Shown here one piece after another: positions 4,792 to 44,080 of a stretch of DNA of 64,000 nt. The translations under genes were made by a program, and so were the position numbers. Under the pieces are notes generated by a model. It searched no databases. It worked only from the letters and a program-made list of their open reading frames with translations, and had not been told where the DNA came from. How positions within the stretch are numbered: the stretch's first letter is position 1; each line of letters begins with the position of its first letter. The DNA comes from an uncultured Chloroflexia bacterium (lineage in GTDB: Bacteria > Chloroflexota > Limnocylindria > Limnocylindrales > CSP1-4), in NCBI GenBank assembly GCA_963721015.1, contig CAVRHM010000006.1:914154-978153 (forward strand), written 5' to 3'.

Positions 4792-6444
4792 GTCGGACTC
4801 TCGGGGCAGACGATCTCGAACACGCGCGTGGCGGCCAGCGGGTCCTCGCCGTGGTCCGGGCCGCCGGGCAGCGGCGTCGTCCCCAGGTCGAGCTCGCGGA
4901 AGCAGTCGCTGCCGGGCGCCCCGGCGTCGATGTCGGCCGGCCAGTGGACGCTCATGGCGTCGGTCAGGACCAGGTAGCGGGTGCCCGGGAAGTGCTGGGC
5001 CAGGTCGACGACGTCGGCCGGCAATTCGTCGGGCAGGGCCAGGCCCGGGACGCCCTGGGTCTCGGCCAGCCAGATCGGGAAGTTGCTGATGACCGGGCCG
5101 GCGGCGGCGTCCAGCGGGTGGCCGATGGCCTCCATCCGGCGCCCCAGCTCCACGTAGTAGGCCGCCGTGCCCTGCGAGCCCGCGCCGAACGAGGGCAACA
5201 GCACGACCGTGAACAGGATGCTCCCGAAGATGCCCAGGGCGGGGCCCAGCCACGCCACCGGCCGGGTCCAGCCCTGCCGAGCCGCGAGTCGGGCGATGCC
5301 GGCGTCCAGGGCGAGGAGGGCCGACAGGACGATGAGGACCTGGACCGGGCCCGCGGCATGGAGGAACGTGCCCCACGTCGTCGCGACCGGGAACAGCAGC
5401 GTCGTCGCCAGGAAGGTCAGGAGGCCCAGCAGGACGACGGGGCGGACGGCCTGGCCGCGACCGGTCCACGGCAGGGCGAGCAGACCGATGAGCGAGATGG
5501 GCAGGCCCGGCAGCAGCAACACGGTGCCGAGGTTGTGCCACGCCCCTTCGACCCGCATCTCGAGCAGCCGGGCCGGCCCGACCGCCAGGTAGCGGGCCAG
5601 CGCTGGGCGGATCGTTCCAGGCGAAGATGTCATGACCGGTGATCGAGAACGCGTTGGTCACCGCCTGGCCGGGCAACGGGCTGCCGAAGACCGCCCAGTT
5701 GCGGGCCGCCCACGGCGCGAAGACGACCAGGGCGACGACACCGGCCAGGCCGATGAGGCGGACCCGTTCGGCCGCGGTCGTCGCCGGGATCCGCCAGGCG
5801 ACGATGATCCAGACGAGGGCCAGCCAGGCCGCCTCGTTGCGGGTCAACGCGGCCAGGCCCAGGCTCACGCCCAGGGCGATGACCCGCGGGTCGGTCAGGC
5901 GCCCGCCACGCGGGTCGGCCCGGATGCGGCTCATCAGCAGGCAGGCGACCAGCGCGAGCGCCGCGAAGGGCATCGTCGAATCGGGCAGGGCCGAGTGCAG
6001 GACGAGGGGCAGGTAGACCGCGCAGGTCAGCCCCGTGCCGATGGCCAGGGTCCGGGCGCGCTCCACGCCGAGGCCACGCTCGGCGGCGACGTCCGCGGCC
6101 AGCCGCCAGCCCAGGACCGGCACGATCGCCCCGACCAGGACGCTGGAGACCTGGGCGGCGCCGAAGGACGGCCCGAAGGCGGCCATCGCCGCGGCGGCGA
6201 GCCAGGTCGGGAGGGGCATCCAGACCTCGAAGGCCGGGCGTGGGAAGACGAGGGGCGGCGTGCTGTAGCTCCACAGGGCATCGCTGACCAGCCCACGGCC
6301 CTCGAGCAGGTTCTGGGCGACCCCGACGTAATACGCGGTGTCCTCCGGCTTGGGGAACACGATCTGGGCCGCGAAGACGATCCGGACGACGAGGGCCACG
6401 GCGAAGACCAGGAGGGCGGACAGGACCGCCTCGCGACGGCTCAC
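4788..6444 (-). CDS. ArnT/PMT-like (GT-C) glycosyltransferase, frameshift near 5610
   Basis: Multi-TM; PEDTAYYVGVAQNLLEGRG, LPDST, LTRNEA motifs; C-terminal half continues in ORF 4788..5633; paralogue of 6441..8036. Confidence 0.75.
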
Positions 6445-36482: not shown

Positions 36483-38626
36483 TCACTTGGCGTCCCGGAT
36501 GGCCGGCACGAGGAAGCCGGCCAGGCCGGCGACCACACTGACCAGCCCGAACGTCGCCAGGACGAACTGGACGCCGATGAGCTCGGCCAACACGCCGCCG
36601 ACGGCCATGGCGATGGCCATCGACCCGAAGACGAGCCAGAACCGGAAGCCGACGACCCGGCCCATCAGGGCGGCCGGGGTCCGTTCCTGGAAGAGGGCCT
36701 GGCTGGGGATGACGAACATCATGTTGGCGATCCCCGACCCGAAGGCGATCCCGATGGCCACGCCCAGGTTGCCGGTCAGCGCCAGGGCGGCCACGGCGAC
36801 CCCCCATGCCGCGTAGCCGACGCTGATCATCCGGCCCTTGGCCAGGCGCGCGCCGACGAGGCCGATGACGAAGCCGCCCAGCAGGTTGCCGGCGCTGGTC
36901 GCGCCCTCCAGGAAGCCGTAGGCGGCCACGGCCTGGGACCGCCCGTACACGACGGCCGCGTAGGTCGGCATGAGCGCCGTGATCGCGCCGACGCTGAGCT
37001 GGGCCACGGACGCCTGGATGGTGTTCGCCCACAGCGTCAATTCGCTGCGCAGGAAGGTGTAGCCGGCGCGCAGCTCGGCGACGAAGCCCTGGCCGGCGCC
37101 CGTCTCGACCTCGGCGTCTTCGGCGGCGTCTTCGGCGGTCGCCGCGCGGACGACCATCGTGCTCAGCAGGAGGGCCGACCCGATGTAGGTCGCCGCATCC
37201 AGCCAGAACGCGACGGGCAGGGCGCTGCCCAGGGCCGCGACGAACAGGGCTGCCAGCGGGAAGCCGACGACGTCGGCCAGGGTCTCGCCCACCCACAGGG
37301 CGGAGTTGGCGGTCACGAGCTCGTCCTTGTCGACGAGCTGGGGCAGGATCGCCACCCGGGCCGGCCGGAAGAAGATCGAGATGGAGGTCATGACGAACAC
37401 GAGCGGGTAGACGAACAGCGGGTTGGTCACGAGGGCGATCGGGACGATCAGGACGACCGCCGCGCGCAGGAGGTCGCTGACGATGAGGACCTCACGCCGG
37501 TCCCAGCGGTCGACCAGGGTGCCCGCGATGGGGCTGACGATGAGGTTCGGGACGAACGCGGCCACGAACACGAACGCCGAGGCGATCGGCGAGCCGGTCA
37601 CGATGAGGACGGCGGTCGCCAGGGCGACCTGATGGATGCGGTCGCCGAACAGCGAGATGAGCTGGCCGGCCCACAGCGCCGTGAACGAGCCGTTGAGGGC
37701 CAGGCGGACGTACGGGTGGCGGCGGACCCGCTCCACCGCCTCCGTGGATGGCCGCGGGAGGGCGATGACCGGCGCGCCGGGGGCCGACGACGCGCAGTCG
37801 GCACGCCGGCCGCCTCGAACGCCGCGGCGATCGTCGCATCGTCGAGCCGGCCGGCCGCCGACGGTGCCGGGAGCGGCGCGAGGGCCGGCGACTTGATGAG
37901 CGGTCCCTGCGATCCGAGCATCACCGGCCGCTGCAGGCCGGCGGCAGGGTTCAGGGCCGGGGCGAGGCCGGTCTCGGCCTGGATGCCCGTGCCACCATCC
38001 GGGCGCGGCAGTCGGGTCGAGCTGGCCAGGCCAACGAGCCGGCGCCGGATGGCCTCCTCCTCGTGGGCCTCCAGGACGGTCGGGATGCGGACGACGCTGG
38101 CGAACAGGAAGAACCCGAGGCCCAGGGACAGGAACACATCGCCCAGCGATGCCACGTTGTTGAACGGCGGGACGGGGATGGGGATGACGTCGCCGAAGAT
38201 CAGGCCACGCAGCAGGAAGTCCGCCGCGTCGGCGTCCTCCACGACGACGTGGAGGTTGGAGATGACCTGCGACGGGTCGTAGCCTGCCGCGACCAGCGCC
38301 GGCTCCCAGATCGGCATGTAGCCGCCGTTGAGGAGGATGACGACGGCGTTGAGCAGGATGCCGACGAACGCGAGGCCCAGGCCCGGGTAGCCGCGGTTGA
38401 CCCACAGCCCCACCAGCAGCAGCCCGAAGCTGGCGGCCAGGAGCGGGACGCGGAGCACGTCCGCGATCGGGAGGCCGGCATCGAGCAGCGCCTCCGTCCC
38501 GAACCGGATGATGACGGCCGCGAACAGGAGCGGGACGAGGCGGAGCTGGATGGCGCCGAGGTTCACGAGCCGGCCGCCCGCGAGCAGGCCGAGCACGAGG
38601 CCGAGGATGATGCCGGCGATCAACAC
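36483..38626 (-). CDS. DUF5317-like membrane domain fused to an MFS transporter (one frameshift at ~37810)
   Basis: ORF 37598..38626: GLLAGG, LLNAVVILLNGGYMP, FGDVIP, SLGDVF. ORF 36483..38405: LWAGQLISLFGDRIH, GTLVDRWDRR, LMGRV. No start codon or SD seen at the MFS junction. Confidence 0.72.
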
Positions 38627-38756
38627 GGGCGAAGCCTGGGGGTTCGGCGCTCCGTCACCGCGACATCATGCTGGAGCGCGAACGTCGCCGTCCGCTCGGG
38701 GACCCGAGGGCGGGACGGGAGAGGGAACGCGGGGCCGCGGTCGGGCGGCCGGGCGC

Positions 38757-40203
38757 TCAGGCCTGTTCGGGCGCCGCCGCGGTCGCCGACGCGGTGGCCG
38801 GCAGGGCGGGCACGGCCGGGATCGTCGTGGCCGTCGGGCTCGGGTCGGGCGCTCCGCCGGTCATCCGCGCAGCGGCCTGGCCGATGAGCGGGATGGGCCG
38901 CGGCTGGACGGTCCGGCCGGGGTCGGCCACGCCCTCGACGTGGTGGGTCCGGACGAACGCATCGACGACGACCGGGTCGAACTGGATGCCGGCGAACTTG
39001 CGCAGCTCGGCGAGGGCCTGCTCGGCGGTCAACGGGGTCATCCGGTACGGGCGGGCCGCCGTCATCGCCTCGAAGGCGTCCGCGACGTGGAGGATGCGCG
39101 CGAGCTTCGGGGATCTCGTCGCCGATGAGGCGGTCCGGGTAGCCCGAGCCGTTGTACCACTCGTGGTGGTGGCGGATGATCGGCAGCTCGGGCGCCAACT
39201 TCGTGACCGGGGCGATGATCTCCGCGCCCAGGACCGGGTGCGCGTTCATGATCATCCGCTCCTCGCGGTTGAGGCGCTCCTGCTTGAGCAGGACGTTGTC
39301 CGGTACGCCGATCTTGCCGACGTCGTGGAGCAGACCGCCCCACTCGAGCGCTTCCACCTCGGCGTCGTTGACGTGCATGACTTGCCCGATGTCGACCGCG
39401 ATCTCCTTGACCCGGACGCTGTGCATCGCCGTGAACGGATCGCGCTTGTCCACCGCCTCGGCCAGCGCGCCGATCGTCTGGGTGAACATCTCGCGCATCT
39501 CGACGAAGCGCCGGTATGCCATCCGCGTCGAGTACAGCGGGATGGCAAACAGAGCGGTTGCCCACCACTGCACGACGTAGATCACGGACATCAACCACGC
39601 TAGCGGCGCGAGGGCAAAGACGCCGCCCATGATTCCTCGGATGTCGCCGATGAACACGTCTCGGGGCGATTGGCCGGTTCGCAGCCCGATTGCGGTGGAA
39701 ACGAGCGCCAAGTTGCCCACGATGAAGATCACGGCTGCGGCCATTGCCGACGCGAAGTCAGACGCAACACCCGGAAGGTACTCAAGCCATACGTGGCGGG
39801 TCACACCGGCAACGACCGCGGGTAGAACCAGTGCCGCGTGGTTGGCAAGAGTTCCATACCAGGGGACCTTTCCCCTGATCTCGCGAAGCTCCGTGGTGCC
39901 GATTAGTGCGACCCAGCCCGCGACGGCAGGCCCACCGAGGAACATCGAGCCCATGATCGGAGCGATCGCGACAGCCTGTTGTGTGCCTCGGGGCAACTGA
40001 ACAGGGAACGCCGAACTCACGAGTGTGAGCCCGATCCAATAGGCAACCCCCAGGGATGTCGCCACGCCCGCTGGGAGTGTGCGGGCCCCGTCGAGCTGGA
40101 TCGCGATAGCTGCAGACGGTTCAAAGAGAATTGTCGAGGCCATTAGCGCCAAGGCGCCAATGGCCACGACCGCGATGATGTACAGCTTCAATGAGACCGG
40201 CAT
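38757..40203 (-). CDS. Membrane-bound HD-GYP domain protein (putative c-di-GMP phosphodiesterase), frameshift near 39105
   Basis: About 6-7 N-terminal TM helices; DKRDPFTAMHSVRV, LLHDVGKIG, HHEWYNGSGYP, ILHVADAFEAMTAARPYR, QFDP. Confidence 0.9.
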
Positions 40204-40276
40204 TGCTGCCTCGTACGACCCAATCCCCGCTTCACTCTAACCCGTTGTCAGACGGCGCGGTAATGGGACATCCGTA

Positions 40277-40366
40277 CTAGAAGCCTCTAAGCGAAGCCCC
40301 CCCAGCGAGTGCGATCATCGCCACGCTAGAAAGCGTGATTGCGATACGCATAAGTTTGGCCTTCAT
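40277..40366 (-). CDS. 29-aa signal-peptide-like precursor MKAKLMRIAITLSSVAMIALAGGASLRGF
   Basis: Basic n-region, hydrophobic h-region, LAGG then a short tail; first gene under the riboswitch. Confidence 0.7.
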   Translation of the reverse strand: MKAKLMRIAITLSSVAMIALAGGASLRGF

Positions 40367-40450
40367 CGTGGTAGCTCGACTACCAGGCCTTGGCGGACTC
40401 GGGTGCCACGCTCGTTCCTCCTTCGCGGCCTCCGTGCTCCGAAAAGCACG

Positions 40451-40480
40451 AAAACCGACCAGACTCATGGTCGGTCGGTT
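40451..40480 (-). terminator. Intrinsic terminator (riboswitch expression platform)
   Basis: Minus strand AACCGACCGACC-ATGAGTCT-GGTCGGTTTT; the stem uses the 3' end of the aptamer. Confidence 0.7.
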
Positions 40481-40565
40481 GCACTACTTGCTCCGCCTCA
40501 CCCTAAGTGCCCATTTCAGGTGAGGCATCGGCGCGTCCGAGCGTCTTGACGTTGCTTCCTAGTAC
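40470..40565 (-). ncRNA. c-di-GMP-II riboswitch aptamer
   Basis: Minus strand GGAAGC...GCCTCACC-TGAAATGGGCACTTAG-GGTGAGGC-GGAGCAAGTAGTGCAACCGACC. This matches the class-II landmarks GGAAAC / AAAU-GGGCACUU / GAG-UAGUAGUGCAACCGACC, including GGGCAC-GTGC pseudoknot complementarity. Lies upstream of an HD-GYP gene. Confidence 0.8.
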
Positions 40566-40587
40566 TGGGGTACTAGCAAGTGGCCGG

Positions 40588-40617
40588 ACTTTACGGATGC
40601 CGGAGTAGTACGGTCAA
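40588..40617 (-). promoter_or_regulatory. Putative promoter of the riboswitch-peptide operon
   Basis: TTGACC-N18-TAAAGT just upstream of the aptamer. Confidence 0.5.
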
Positions 40618-40636
40618 TACGGCACCTTACCTATCC

Positions 40637-43600
40637 CTACAGGGATTCGAGGGGGATTGGCTCTGTGCCGAGCTCGTCGCGAACGTAATTGGCATAGTGT
40701 CCGTACTGTTCGGCGGCAGCCGCGTGAGCTCCCGTCGCTCGGTACAGGCGAAGCAGCGCAACCTCGACCTGCTCAGCATCCGGATCCACTTCTAGGGTGC
40801 GTCGGGCAAGCGCAATCGCGCGATCGTAGTGACCGGATCCGAAGTCAGCCCTGACCGCGCGTTCCAGGATCTCGAGGTAGGCGGCATGGAGACCGTCGCG
40901 GTACGCACTCGACCACTCTTCGTACTCGAAGTCCATCGCGAAGCGGCCACGATACAAATCCGCCAGAGAGGCTATGTCGGTTGGGCTCGAATGGGCCGTG
41001 ATCTGGCGGATGAAGACTCGGCACTGGATCGACCTGCTTGTCACCAACTCCGGATCCAACCACACGACGTCACCGTCGTGATGAACGTATCCCGGTGACA
41101 AATCCTCCGCAAAGTCTTCCTCAAATACGCGGCGGAGGAAGTAGATGGTCTGGTTAAGCGAGTTGACAGCGACATCCGGATCCTGTTCAGGCCAAAGAGC
41201 ATCGAGGACTTGGTCTCGGGTCGCGGAGGAATTCGGTCGCGTCAGGAGGAAGCAAAGTAATGCTAAGACTTTGCGCCGAATCGAGGACCCTGCGACCTCT
41301 GAGTCTCCGATCCGGATGGCCGTTCGGCCCTGGTCTTCCACGAAGACTCGATCTGCAAGCCGGCGTGCGAGAGTTCGGCCAAGCATGGCCACGTAGCGCC
41401 GCCGCTTGACTCCTCGGGCGAACTGCCGAAGGAGGGCGATGTCGGCCTTTTCGCCGATCTCCTCGAGCATCTCGGCGGCTCGGAGGCGCTCGGCTCTGGG
41501 TTCTTGCACCAGCTTCCGCAGCACGGCGCGCCAGCGGTCTGGATGAAGGCGCGCCGCCCGCAGGGCCACATCTACGGCTTCATGTGTCAGGTCGTCGAGA
41601 CGATCGGCGACAAGGTCTGCGACCGCTGTGATGTGCCATAAGTGGTCATGTCCGATGACTACCAGGGATCGCGAAGCGGCTTCAGGGCTGGTGGCAAGTG
41701 CCTGAAGGATCTCGCCGATGCGCCTGTTCGCATAGAGGCCCGATCCAGTCGCGGACTGCTGAGCTTGAGTGAGGATCCCACGACTGTGGCCCGCGTCAGT
41801 GAACAGGTCGCATTGGGCGACAAGCAAGTCTCGACTCGACGCGATGCCGACCATCGTCGCGACACCTTCGGGGTATTGCCTGAGAATGGCGCGAGCCTCA
41901 GTTGGGCGGCCATCGCGAAGCGCCATGCGTGCGGCGGTCACCACCCATAGCCGACGTTCCGCAACCGACTGGGTCGACAGGTCGCCGACGCGTTCAAAGA
42001 GCTGAAGCGCTGTATCGGGGTTGCCCCATCCATCGAACGCTTCCGCGGCTTCGAGGAGAACGTCGTTCTCGAGAGCGCCGCCGCCGCTCAAGAGGCCGTC
42101 GAGGAGCGCCAAGGCCTCCGAGAGTCGACCGAGTCGTGCCAGGACGGATATGAGGAGCGCCGTGGCTGCGTTCCGTTCGAGCTTGGACGACGTGTCGCCG
42201 AACGCTTCCAATGCCTCTCCAACCTCGCGCTCAGCATCGGCAAGTCGGTCCTGTTGGACCGAGATCGTGGCGAGGTTGTACATCGAGACACCAAAGTGAT
42301 GGACCTGCGCATCTCGCTGGTCCTTGGCCATCGATCGGAGCAGTCGGATTAGGGACTCGATGTCGGCAGCTGTCTCGAGTCGGAGGAGCGCAGCGGAGGC
42401 TCTCGCGATCGATCGCAGGTTGGGGTCGGAAGTCGTCGACTCAAGGTGGTCGGCCAGTACGAGTGCCCGCTCCCCGTATCCATAGTTGAAGCTGACAGCG
42501 AGCAGATTCAGCATCGCGTGGTCGCGTTCCACAGGGCCAGCGGAGGCGGAGTCCAGCACCGCCTGGGCTGCGGCCGTTGCTGCTTCGAAGTCGCCCTCCT
42601 GGTAGTCGATCCGCCCTTTGATGAGTTGTGAGCCAGGCGGCATGATTTCGCTTGGGGCGTCGACGACGAAGGCTGCGGCGAGCGAATACTGGGCGTTGCC
42701 CATGATGGTCGGGACCGCGTCGTTGATGACGTCCAGCATGGTCTGGAGGTCGTGGGCCTCGCGATAGTGGTGGGCCGCGACGCGCCAGTCGGTCGAGGCT
42801 GCGGCCGCGCCGGCCCGACGGTGGAGATCGTCGACGTCAGCATCCCCATCCGCGGATCGGAGGCGGGCCTCGAGGAACTCGCGGACGAGCGGGTGATAGC
42901 GAAGATGGGTCCGCGGCCCGCCGGACACTCGACTCAACAACGTCAATCGCTCGGCGTCGATCGTCAGCCGGGCGACCTCCGGTCCCGGTTCGTCGCTGAC
43001 CACCTCGGCCATCTCCGGCGTAACGATCTGAAGGACCGACGTGGTCATGAGGAAGCGCTGGAGGTCCTCGGGCAGGTCGCCGACGACCTCCTCGGCGAGA
43101 TAGTCGTAGAGGTCACTGTCCGCGCCGCTCAGGTCGCGCACGAATTGGCGGATCTCCCTGGGCGTGCGATTGCGCAGGGCGGCCTGGACGAGCTGCAAAG
43201 AGGCGATCCACCCCTCCGTCCGGACGGCTAGATCGCGCAGGATGTCCGGCTCGATGGACCGGCCGTAGGTCTCGGTGAACAGCAGGGCCGTTTCGCTCGC
43301 GTCGAACCGGAGGTCATCCGTGCCGACCTCGGCGACCTCGCCGACCGCGCGAAGGCGCCCCAGCGGTATCGTCGGCGCGCGACGGCTGGCGAATGCGATC
43401 GTCAACCGCTCTGGCGCTCGAGCCACCAACTCCCGAGCGACGTAACGCGCGTCCGGTGCGTCGTCGACGAGGTGGAAGTCGTCGAAGATCAGGAGGGCGC
43501 CACCCTCTACCATCGCCGACAGTTCGCGGACGAACGTCTCGACGACAGCGTCTCGGGTCGGCCCGCCGACGCCGATCTCGGCTAGAAGGGAGGCCGTCGT

Positions 43601-44080
43601 CGGCGCGAAGCCCGGCTCATGCTCCCGGCCGGCGGCGACAAGGTGGTGGAGGATCGAGGTCCAGTCGCGATCGTCCGCATCCAGTCGATACCAGAGGGTC
43701 CGGACGCGGGTCCGACGCGAGAAGTCGGCGAGCAACGTCGTCTTGCCGAAGCCAGCGTCAGCGATGAGCAGGATGACCCGATGGTGGAGCTTGGCGGCCA
43801 GCCAATCGAGCAGTCGTGGTCGCGCCAGCGTCTCGTCACGGAGCGCGGGCGGCTGGACCTTCGCGAGCTGGACGGGGAATCCGACGACCTCGTCGCGCAG
43901 GGGTCCACCTCTTCCAAGCGGGACCACGCCAGACGCCGGGCCCATGCCGACGTCGGCTGGCGAGCGACTCACCGACGCCCGGGCTGACGCCAGCTGTCCG
44001 AGCGGCGCGAACGATACCGAGCGCTCCGGAGGAGCGTCAACGGAGGCATCCAGGACTGTGCGTTCCCGCATCTTCGACAT
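40637..44080 (-). CDS. MalT-like STAND ATPase-TPR regulator with C-terminal SARP (winged helix + BTAD)
   Basis: ADAGFGKTT Walker A, LIFDDFH Walker B, TEGWIASLQL, YHPLVREFL; C-terminal RRKVLALLCFLL...DQVLDALWPE, LYRGRF, VDPDAE...LLRLY. Confidence 0.88.
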   Translation of the reverse strand: MSKMRERTVLDASVDAPPERSVSFAPLGQLASARASVSRSPADVGMGPASGVVPLGRGGPLRDEVVGFPVQLAKVQPPALRDETLARPRLLDWLAAKLHHRVILLIADAGFGKTTLLADFSRRTRVRTLWYRLDADDRDWTSILHHLVAAGREHEPGFAPTTASLLAEIGVGGPTRDAVVETFVRELSAMVEGGALLIFDDFHLVDDAPDARYVARELVARAPERLTIAFASRRAPTIPLGRLRAVGEVAEVGTDDLRFDASETALLFTETYGRSIEPDILRDLAVRTEGWIASLQLVQAALRNRTPREIRQFVRDLSGADSDLYDYLAEEVVGDLPEDLQRFLMTTSVLQIVTPEMAEVVSDEPGPEVARLTIDAERLTLLSRVSGGPRTHLRYHPLVREFLEARLRSADGDADVDDLHRRAGAAAASTDWRVAAHHYREAHDLQTMLDVINDAVPTIMGNAQYSLAAAFVVDAPSEIMPPGSQLIKGRIDYQEGDFEAATAAAQAVLDSASAGPVERDHAMLNLLAVSFNYGYGERALVLADHLESTTSDPNLRSIARASAALLRLETAADIESLIRLLRSMAKDQRDAQVHHFGVSMYNLATISVQQDRLADAEREVGEALEAFGDTSSKLERNAATALLISVLARLGRLSEALALLDGLLSGGGALENDVLLEAAEAFDGWGNPDTALQLFERVGDLSTQSVAERRLWVVTAARMALRDGRPTEARAILRQYPEGVATMVGIASSRDLLVAQCDLFTDAGHSRGILTQAQQSATGSGLYANRRIGEILQALATSPEAASRSLVVIGHDHLWHITAVADLVADRLDDLTHEAVDVALRAARLHPDRWRAVLRKLVQEPRAERLRAAEMLEEIGEKADIALLRQFARGVKRRRYVAMLGRTLARRLADRVFVEDQGRTAIRIGDSEVAGSSIRRKVLALLCFLLTRPNSSATRDQVLDALWPEQDPDVAVNSLNQTIYFLRRVFEEDFAEDLSPGYVHHDGDVVWLDPELVTSRSIQCRVFIRQITAHSSPTDIASLADLYRGRFAMDFEYEEWSSAYRDGLHAAYLEILERAVRADFGSGHYDRAIALARRTLEVDPDAEQVEVALLRLYRATGAHAAAAEQYGHYANYVRDELGTEPIPLESL

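Follow-up and report, generated by a model that had tools for sequence, protein, structure and literature searches.

Do a riboswitch, a gene for a 29-residue peptide, a membrane-bound HD-GYP protein and a DUF5317 domain joined to a transporter, lying in a row in a soil bacterium, belong to one signaling circuit, and if so, what does the peptide do? The question is raised by positions 36483 to 44080 of a 64-kb window, by which we mean the whole stretch of DNA analyzed (64,000 nt; positions 914,154 to 978,153 of contig CAVRHM010000006.1, GenBank assembly GCA_963721015.1). The window comes from a soil Chloroflexota genome of the class Limnocylindria (3.39 Mb in 8 contigs, with an estimated completeness of 77%). 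An earlier reading of the letters by themselves (the sequence-only reading) had described five co-oriented elements and proposed a new peptide-signaling circuit with feedback by cyclic di-GMP (c-di-GMP). All five are present where that reading placed them, on the minus strand, as judged by Pfam, NCBIfam and Rfam matches and by reading the open reading frames (ORFs). Three things had escaped it: a second mini-ORF, the identity of the sensor domain as MASE9, and a frame break in the HD-GYP gene.

Our results support well that these elements are an evolutionarily linked module. As compared across lineages, its conserved core is a micropeptide, a MASE9 sensor and DUF5317, while the riboswitch, the second mini-ORF, the transporter fusion and the regulator are lineage-specific additions to that core.

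Two mini-ORFs are conserved as coding sequences

We aligned the leader and mini-ORFs of 43 Limnocylindria loci; the entire leader aligns. Since leader and ORFs recur together in 43 loci, chance is excluded. The longer mini-ORF, ORF-B (40366-40277), encodes a 29-residue micropeptide with a single transmembrane (TM) segment, MKAKLMRIAITLSSVAMIALAGGASLRGF. ORF-B is intact, motif included, at 37 loci; at 35 its length is exactly 29 codons, and no two of these 35 are identical in DNA. Among these 35 sequences, the entropies at codon positions 1, 2 and 3 are 0.79, 0.44 and 1.44, and the last eight codons (GGASLRGF) show 2641 synonymous versus 301 non-synonymous pairwise codon differences. Residues A19, G22-G-A-S25 and G28-F29 never vary, and A21 almost never does. 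The sequence-only reading had singled out L-A-[GA]-G-A as a pattern whose conservation should be checked, and L-A-G-G-A proved invariant or near-invariant in the 35 intact sequences.

Upstream lies ORF-A, nine codons reading (M)APESAKAW from a GTG at 40409 to a TAG at 40380, behind the Shine-Dalgarno (SD) sequence AAGGAGG (40423-40417). Of the 43 loci, 37 have it intact, and its consensus is M-x-P-E-x(2-3)-K-G-W. Five loci have lengthened it in frame by whole 21-27-nt units ending in KGW or KGF, giving four units in L072, three in L076 and two each in L066, L034 and L061. Both mini-ORFs end alike, in [KR]-G-[WF]-stop. Judging from the codon signature of ORF-B and from the frame of ORF-A, which is kept through unit expansions in several lineages, both are protein-coding. 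Like the DUF5317-transporter fusion, ORF-A is limited to the class Limnocylindria.

Two roles for ORF-B were ruled out. It is no lipoprotein signal peptide, as Cys is absent, and it is too short at 29 residues for a force-sensing arrest peptide. The TM segment of such a short peptide is still unexposed when the ribosome reaches the stop codon, unlike in SecM or MifM arrest.

Some of the ORF-B codons (CTT, AGA, TCT and GCA) are unusual for the host genome. At one locus from a short-read metagenome-assembled genome (MAG), L024 (G022:C15), a run of N at about 5000-5100 covers the mini-ORF region and the HD-GYP start; whether a scaffold gap or masking, it leaves this locus uninformative on the peptides.

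Micropeptide, sensor and DUF5317 recur together across lineages

How far does the linkage extend beyond the class? We surveyed 151 Chloroflexota genomes, counting HD_5 (the HD-GYP signature domain of this gene) as a neighbor when it lay within 2.5 kb. DUF5317 occurs in 47 of the 151, and its fusion to a transporter of the major facilitator superfamily (MFS) in Limnocylindria only. In other classes, at least 20 of the roughly 41 DUF5317 loci have HD_5 nearby, usually on the same strand and either before or after DUF5317, versus a rough chance expectation of about 1% (with roughly six HD_5 genes per genome). Four more DUF5317 loci adjoin a MASE9 protein that lacks HD_5, making at least 24 of about 41. 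Among 14 control genomes, DUF5317 and MASE9 co-occur in the same two, those of Thermus thermophilus and Thermotoga maritima.

The sequence-only reading had staked its idea on small ORFs recurring beside DUF5317/HD-GYP pairs in other genomes; they do recur, and the idea passed this test. In 12 of 13 neighborhoods of such pairs, a hydrophobic ORF of 24-47 residues stands at the expected place. Ten of the 12 come from 11 loci outside Limnocylindria, with an SD visible in all but one; MKVKLVRIAVVLMGLVALGLASGADIQVGW and MKWLVVRILAALSFVLGLLMAVGAGQKWF are examples of these peptides. The same scan on random stretches of the host genome returned 9 of 300 (3%), a comparison to be read with the differing base composition of the genomes in mind.

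The core is arranged differently at individual loci. At L129 (G110:C28, 4250-5000, minus strand), a c-di-GMP-II-GAG riboswitch (40.9 bits, gathering score 40) precedes two identical tandem genes for a 31-residue peptide, MKWATLKMKVIYGLMVIASLVMAAGADSRWA, each with an SD, followed by HD-GYP and DUF5317. A Firmicutes-labeled MAG has a MASE9-HD-GYP gene, a second HD-GYP gene and then DUF5317, with the peptide MARLVKVLLVLLAILLAGGANLQWG. One metagenomic locus reads 31-residue gene, MASE9-HD-GYP, DUF5317, and another 34-residue gene, MASE9-GAF-histidine kinase, DUF5317. In the literature searched, we found no description of the module, of a MASE9 partner, of HD-GYP with a small membrane protein or of a c-di-GMP-II riboswitch with HD-GYP.

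The HD-GYP protein carries a MASE9-like sensor

The gene downstream of ORF-B (38757 to 40203, minus strand) encodes a MASE9-like multi-TM sensor and an HD-GYP phosphodiesterase domain. Along with HD, HD_5 (PF13487; cut-off 27.2 bits) matches with 80.4 bits over profile positions 3-125 and with 37.7 bits over positions 126-170 in the next frame, which places the protein in this family, and the HD-GYP motifs read HDVGK and HHEWYNGSGYP. The multi-TM HD-GYP gene of the sequence-only reading is therefore real, but its reading frame is broken in this genome by one extra C, located in the C-run 39112-39109 by comparison with three relatives. Orthologues are intact at 470-472 residues. Programmed frameshifting was ruled out, since the relatives have a single frame and no surplus C.

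For the membrane domain, the Pfam MASE9 profile (PF20972) gives 17.6 bits, under its cut-off of 24.3 (E = 0.0038, profile positions 122-192 only). By BLASTP, the N-terminus aligns with the MASE9-HD-GYP protein of L145, from a Firmicutes-labeled MAG, at 34% identity over 154 residues (E = 2e-14); the L145 protein is a MASE9 protein by its precomputed Pfam match. The membrane domain appears to be a diverged MASE9 sensor. Like T. maritima TM1467 and S. venezuelae HdgA (Galperin and Chou, bioRxiv 10.1101/2021.11.05.467447), in what that paper presents of them, the protein has an N-terminal multi-TM domain with the stretch GKVPW-G-L-N-A; unlike them, it falls under the Pfam cut-off. The MASE9 passages of the same preprint, which defines the domain, give no ligand, argue for intramembrane ligand binding and describe the outer loops as short and poorly conserved; these passages mention neither a neighboring micropeptide nor a DUF5317 partner (bioRxiv 10.1101/2021.11.05.467447).

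Outside the window, the host encodes a GGDEF diguanylate cyclase (contig C2, 193898-195340) with a paralogous membrane domain (37% identity over 128 residues), so c-di-GMP synthesis and its breakdown may both be driven by the same type of sensor. Within 900 nt of that gene, neither side has a small TM ORF.

DUF5317 is fused to a transporter in Limnocylindria

The last part of the operon (36483 to 38626, minus strand) comprises DUF5317, which runs from 38626 to about 38100, then a variable linker and, from about 37772 to 36483, an MFS_3/DHA3-type transporter. DUF5317 (PF17248) matches with 84.6 bits over profile positions 2-150 of 151 (cut-off 25), and MFS_1 and MFS_3 with 92.8 and 80.8 bits, above their cut-offs, so that both assignments hold. 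The NCBIfam subfamily TIGR00900 gives 190.7 bits on the transporter, under its cut-off of 319.6.

The sequence-only reading had joined DUF5317 to the transporter. In the window the two lie in separate frames, with a one-base frame change in the linker (about 37860-37780), but in relatives they form a single ORF: at least 12 genomes of the same genus encode one chain of 650-745 residues (675 in L022), and more than 120 protein clusters combine PF17248, PF05977 and PF07690 in one chain. By this record, the fusion is genuine. In the family as a whole (about 7,000 representative clusters), long fusions are in the minority and most members are stand-alone proteins of ~190 residues.

An alignment including distant members down to 26% identity retains the invariant N77, N93, N100, G102, M104, P105, D146, S160, G162 and D163 as well as G89 and G169. 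The AlphaFold2 model (predicted local distance difference test score, pLDDT, 90.8) has five helices and a four-strand region. From the predicted helices and the fusion to an MFS N-terminus, which lies inside, the strand region and both Asp residues would face outward. The DUF5317 profile matched nothing among all PDB sequences at E up to 10, and a Foldseek search of the model against the PDB gave a best E of 3.1, with LspA not among its 14 matches. We therefore dropped an LspA (Peptidase_A8) identity, for which there is likeness in neither sequence nor fold, and likewise dropped membership of the GxGD-type proteases (presenilin or prepilin peptidase), the PDB profile and Foldseek searches having given no meaningful match. 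DUF5317 is unmentioned in the literature searched.

The host has a second, stand-alone DUF5317 gene outside the window (contig C6, 265601-266412). About 135 nt after it lies a micropeptide ORF, ...VVMLLSALASSSLVLMAGRRWN (ending ...LVLMAGRRWN), and a GGDEF-EAL gene is located 1.8 kb upstream of the DUF5317 gene. An operon with the GGDEF-EAL gene was ruled out, as an oppositely oriented dioxygenase-like gene stands between.

The two frame breaks are probably assembly indels of the type left by long reads: orthologues are intact, the surplus C falls in a homopolymer, related MAGs with few contigs have the same operon broken at other positions, and GGDEF genes of the host are split as well. The closest public relatives are such few-contig "MFD" MAGs. 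The split GGDEF domains, divided between frames at C7:302597-303066, C7:328646-328968 and C6:620565-621030, among others, point to a high rate of indel errors in the assembly. That both frameshifts are true mutations, leaving the HD-GYP and DUF5317/MFS genes as pseudogenes here, is improbable: two independent breaks do occur within 3.7 kb, but both are single-base indels, one of them in a C-run, strong domain matches lie in their own frame on either side of both, the 8-contig assembly is by estimate only 77% complete, with several other genes split, and the breaks in few-contig relatives fall elsewhere in the operon.

The leader contains a predicted promoter and a c-di-GMP-II riboswitch

Between the regulator stop codon and ORF-B, the minus strand carries, in order, a conserved box, a promoter, a palindrome, an aptamer, a terminator-like stem, a second stem-loop, the SD with ORF-A, and ORF-B. 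The box, GGATAGGTAAGGTGCCGTA (40636-40618), directly follows the regulator stop, is near-invariant in the 43 loci and abuts the -35 element; it may be an activator site bound by the BTAD regulator. The sigma-70-like promoter consists of TTGACC (-35, 40617-40612), an 18-nt spacer and TAAAGT (-10, 40593-40588). Our promoter scan found this 1 site versus 0.2 expected, and both hexamers are kept in the 43 loci. From this arrangement we infer that the operon is transcribed from its own promoter just after the regulator gene and gated by the riboswitch.

An 18-nt palindrome, CTAGTAC-CCCA-GTACTAG (40576-40559), separates the -10 box from the aptamer. Across the 43 loci its stem letters are conserved, the loop is free and compensatory change is almost nil, a pattern that resembles a protein operator more than an RNA helix. 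At about 40283-40274, across the ORF-B stop codon, CTAGTAC occurs again as a half-site.

The aptamer (40547-40464) is a full c-di-GMP-II riboswitch aptamer (RF01786), matching at 65.6 bits (gathering score 53.5, E = 2e-12) over model positions 1-84 of 84. It is the sole Rfam family over its gathering score in the 64 kb and the single copy in the genome. It stands in the same position in 10 of 10 loci of the genus that have upstream DNA, as well as in L143 and L144, with orthologues scoring 57.9-67 bits, and its sequence is conserved in the 43 Limnocylindria loci. The sequence-only reading was right about the aptamer but had put it directly ahead of the 29-residue ORF; the SD and the nine-codon ORF-A intervene.

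The aptamer is followed by a terminator-like stem, AACCGACCGACC...GGUCGGUU with UUUU (40451 to 40480), which uses the aptamer 3′ strand as its 5′ arm. The stem is present in the ligand-free minimum-free-energy fold and by itself is worth -17.5 kcal/mol. The terminator claimed earlier is thus borne out as a predicted structure, but its tract has only four U, on which account a consensus terminator scan made no call. A second stem-loop, UUCGUGCUU-UUCG-GAGCACGGA (40431 to 40452), takes up this U-tract; it is predicted in nearly all 43 loci, and its differing stem letters look compensatory. Since the aptamer 3′ strand doubles as the 5′ arm of the terminator-like stem, bound c-di-GMP should permit read-through, and the modeled structures suggest an ON switch.

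The c-di-GMP-II class was first described in Clostridia. Like operons under such riboswitches, this one has a full-length aptamer, a mutually exclusive terminator-like stem and a c-di-GMP-related target gene. It differs in its Limnocylindria host, in having two micropeptides as first products and a MASE9-HD-GYP enzyme as target, and in its short U-tract followed by a second conserved stem-loop. The literature searched held no link between this riboswitch class and Chloroflexi.

G+C in the region ranges from 61 to 72%; it dips from ~72% around to 61% at 40001-42000, a stretch that takes in the leader, both mini-ORFs and the regulator gene's 3′ portion.

The regulator upstream is a MalT-like protein with a SARP-type C-terminus

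The TPR-rich regulator of the sequence-only reading is borne out as an ORF of 1147 residues (40637 to 44080, minus strand) with TPR, BTAD and Trans_reg_C matches. It has an N-terminal MalT-like STAND NTPase, a TPR-like middle and, at the C-terminus, an OmpR-type winged helix-turn-helix (wHTH; Trans_reg_C, 31.2 bits, cut-off 26.2) with BTAD (50.5 bits, cut-off 22.1), the combination that defines a SARP/BTAD regulator. AAA_16 and TPR are additional Pfam matches. The NCBIfam MalT match is partial, covering residues 73-455 with 177 bits, far under the cut-off of 537. The protein resembles MalT in its NTPase with a helical-repeat sensor, and SARPs, including AfsR, in its Trans_reg_C-BTAD end. In AfsR, the DNA-binding part is N-terminal; here the order is NTPase-TPR-wHTH-BTAD, with DNA binding at the C-terminus.

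Orthologues lie directly upstream in L037, L038 and L040 and in most of the 43 Limnocylindria loci, and a large TPR-BTAD regulator is also found directly upstream in two other Chloroflexota families. At L133, L134 and L135 (G145, G100 and G082, of another Chloroflexota family), a TPR-BTAD gene and a terminator-like hairpin are followed by two copies of a direct repeat, TTTTGAAGCCTG, and then by an ORF for a 47-residue TM peptide, DUF5317 and HD-GYP. In form, the repeat resembles a SARP-type binding site.

Discussion

What, then, does the micropeptide do? We tentatively favor a reading in which the locus encodes a phosphodiesterase induced by c-di-GMP, with ORF-B as ligand or subunit of the MASE9 domain, DUF5317 acting on the ORF-B tail, and ORF-A and the MFS transporter as an export branch. 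The transcript would yield four products: ORF-A, ORF-B, the MASE9-sensor/HD-GYP phosphodiesterase and DUF5317-MFS. High c-di-GMP would open the switch and induce its own phosphodiesterase, resulting in negative feedback. ORF-B would enter the membrane with its N-terminus inside and its C-terminus outside and serve the MASE9 domain as a ligand bound within the membrane or as a regulatory subunit, tuning HD-GYP activity or, in other lineages, kinase activity. DUF5317, with D146, S160, G162, D163 and N100-G-G-x-M-P predicted at the outer membrane face, would handle the conserved ORF-B tail by maturation, turnover or presentation. ORF-A and the fused transporter would be a Limnocylindria-specific, possibly export-related branch.

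The ORF-B tail is near-invariant across about 40 species, while DUF5317 falls to 52-70% identity, a range taken from a single-protein search that reached Limnocylindrales-type relatives only. This invariance next to a diverging DUF5317 is unlike the diversifying signals of agr and RRNPP systems, and a fixed partner fits better. Small membrane proteins such as MgrB (with PhoQ), SafA (PhoQ), AcrZ (AcrB) and KdpF tune membrane sensors or transporters. The putative ORF-B product is like them in its length of ~30 residues, its one TM segment, its place beside a membrane sensor and its conserved rather than diversifying sequence. It differs in that its partner would be a MASE9 domain on a phosphodiesterase or kinase, with DUF5317 as a third component, and in being gated by a riboswitch together with a twin ORF.

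Several findings weigh against this reading. Expanded by units, ORF-A resembles a multi-copy secreted precursor more than it does an accessory to a membrane subunit, and the MFS fusion suggests that something is exported. Assignment of the sensor to MASE9 combines a sub-threshold Pfam score with one pairwise match. One metagenomic DUF5317 gene and several DUF5317 loci of the phylum sample have no MASE9 or HD-GYP neighbor. As the U-tract is short, the level of control could be other than termination.

A secreted-peptide circuit resembling agr or RRNPP systems, close to what the sequence-only reading proposed, is possible but on balance unlikely. DUF5317 would cut ORF-B after GG or GGA, the transporter would export ASLRGF or SLRGF, perhaps along with ORF-A unit peptides, and the product would be sensed from outside by MASE9 or, once re-imported, by the regulator TPRs, with c-di-GMP closing the loop through the riboswitch. 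ORF-B does look like a signal peptide to which just 5-8 residues are attached, positions -1 and -3 being occupied by small ones, and its L12-S13...M17...L20-x-G22-G23 forms a pattern that we take to resemble a double-glycine leader. The invariant Asp, Asn and Ser residues of DUF5317 are predicted on the outer face, and in this class the domain is fused to an exporter-type MFS protein. ORF-A grows by whole units, at most four, that terminate in KGW or KGF, as multi-copy precursors do, and a TPR regulator with a small peptide gene directly behind it has the arrangement of RRNPP systems, one that recurs in two other families. Set against this, known quorum-sensing peptides lack such invariance across species as the tail shows, ORF-A is without an export signal, DUF5317 is unlike any known peptidase in fold or sequence, and the other lineages with the peptide-MASE9-DUF5317 core have neither the MFS fusion nor ORF-A. 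The short, poorly conserved outer loops of MASE9 and the intramembrane binding argued for it, in the passages on that domain, do not favor sensing from outside either (bioRxiv 10.1101/2021.11.05.467447).

Comparison with the known peptide systems yields the same mixture. Like agr, the operon combines a gene for a small precursor with genes for a membrane sensor and for a polytopic membrane protein in which polar residues are conserved. It departs from agr in that ORF-B offers no Cys to form a thiolactone, c-di-GMP hydrolysis is the output and the tail is invariant; Pfam and NCBIfam found no AgrB, AgrD or AgrC domain in the operon products, which places them outside the agr family. As in RRNPP systems (Rap/Phr, NprR/NprX, PlcR/PapR, AimR/AimP), a TPR regulator precedes a small signal-peptide-like gene with a short tail, and AimP-type products end in xRGx. 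Unlike in those systems, the regulator is an 1147-residue STAND NTPase with a C-terminal wHTH and BTAD, a riboswitch lies between, and the phylum is not Firmicutes. Peptidase-containing ABC transporters (PCATs) export peptides with double-glycine leaders; here too a Gly-Gly precedes a short C-terminus and a putative hydrolytic membrane domain is N-terminal on an exporter. The differences are that the transporter is MFS rather than ABC, DUF5317 is not a C39 peptidase, the leader is TM-like and the fusion is found in one class.

A bolder version, which we consider doubtful and rather unlikely, joins parts of both. Micropeptide, DUF5317 and MASE9 would form a widespread device in which DUF5317 is a juxtamembrane Asp peptidase of new fold and the peptide, or its TM stub, is the MASE9 ligand; Limnocylindria would have turned it into a riboswitch-gated secreted-peptide system with the MFS protein as exporter and ORF-A as precursor. 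If this were true, a ligand for MASE9 would have been found, one that drives c-di-GMP hydrolysis or histidine-kinase signaling.

It is improbable that the mini-ORFs act only as a leader, their translation setting phosphodiesterase expression by coupling or by pausing at [KR]-G-[WF]-stop while DUF5317-MFS is an unrelated transporter. They do lie in a structured leader behind a riboswitch and end in similar three residues before the stop. The SD of ORF-A is strong, and ORF-B starts 10-25 nt past the ORF-A stop, mostly without an SD of its own, which suggests translational coupling. However, peptides like ORF-B are also found with MASE9 and DUF5317 in other classes and phyla, at loci that lack a riboswitch and order their genes differently; one even lies downstream of the DUF5317 paralogue. 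Selection at the amino-acid level extends beyond the last codons to the hydrophobic core and the whole GGASLRGF tail, and the ORF-B stop is about 75 nt from the HD-GYP start, which has its own GAGG.

For the families concerned, the favored partnership of micropeptide, sensor and DUF5317 would matter in several ways. MASE9 is a widespread membrane sensor domain of c-di-GMP enzymes and kinases that has so far been without a ligand, and DUF5317 has been without a function; by their linkage, both gain a concrete candidate partner in a micropeptide of ~30 residues. The system is compact, at about 4 kb, and the growth of a nine-residue ORF by entire units is uncommon in its own right. Should the partnership hold, second-messenger control would gain a further layer, one made of peptide, in which a riboswitch gates micropeptide genes.

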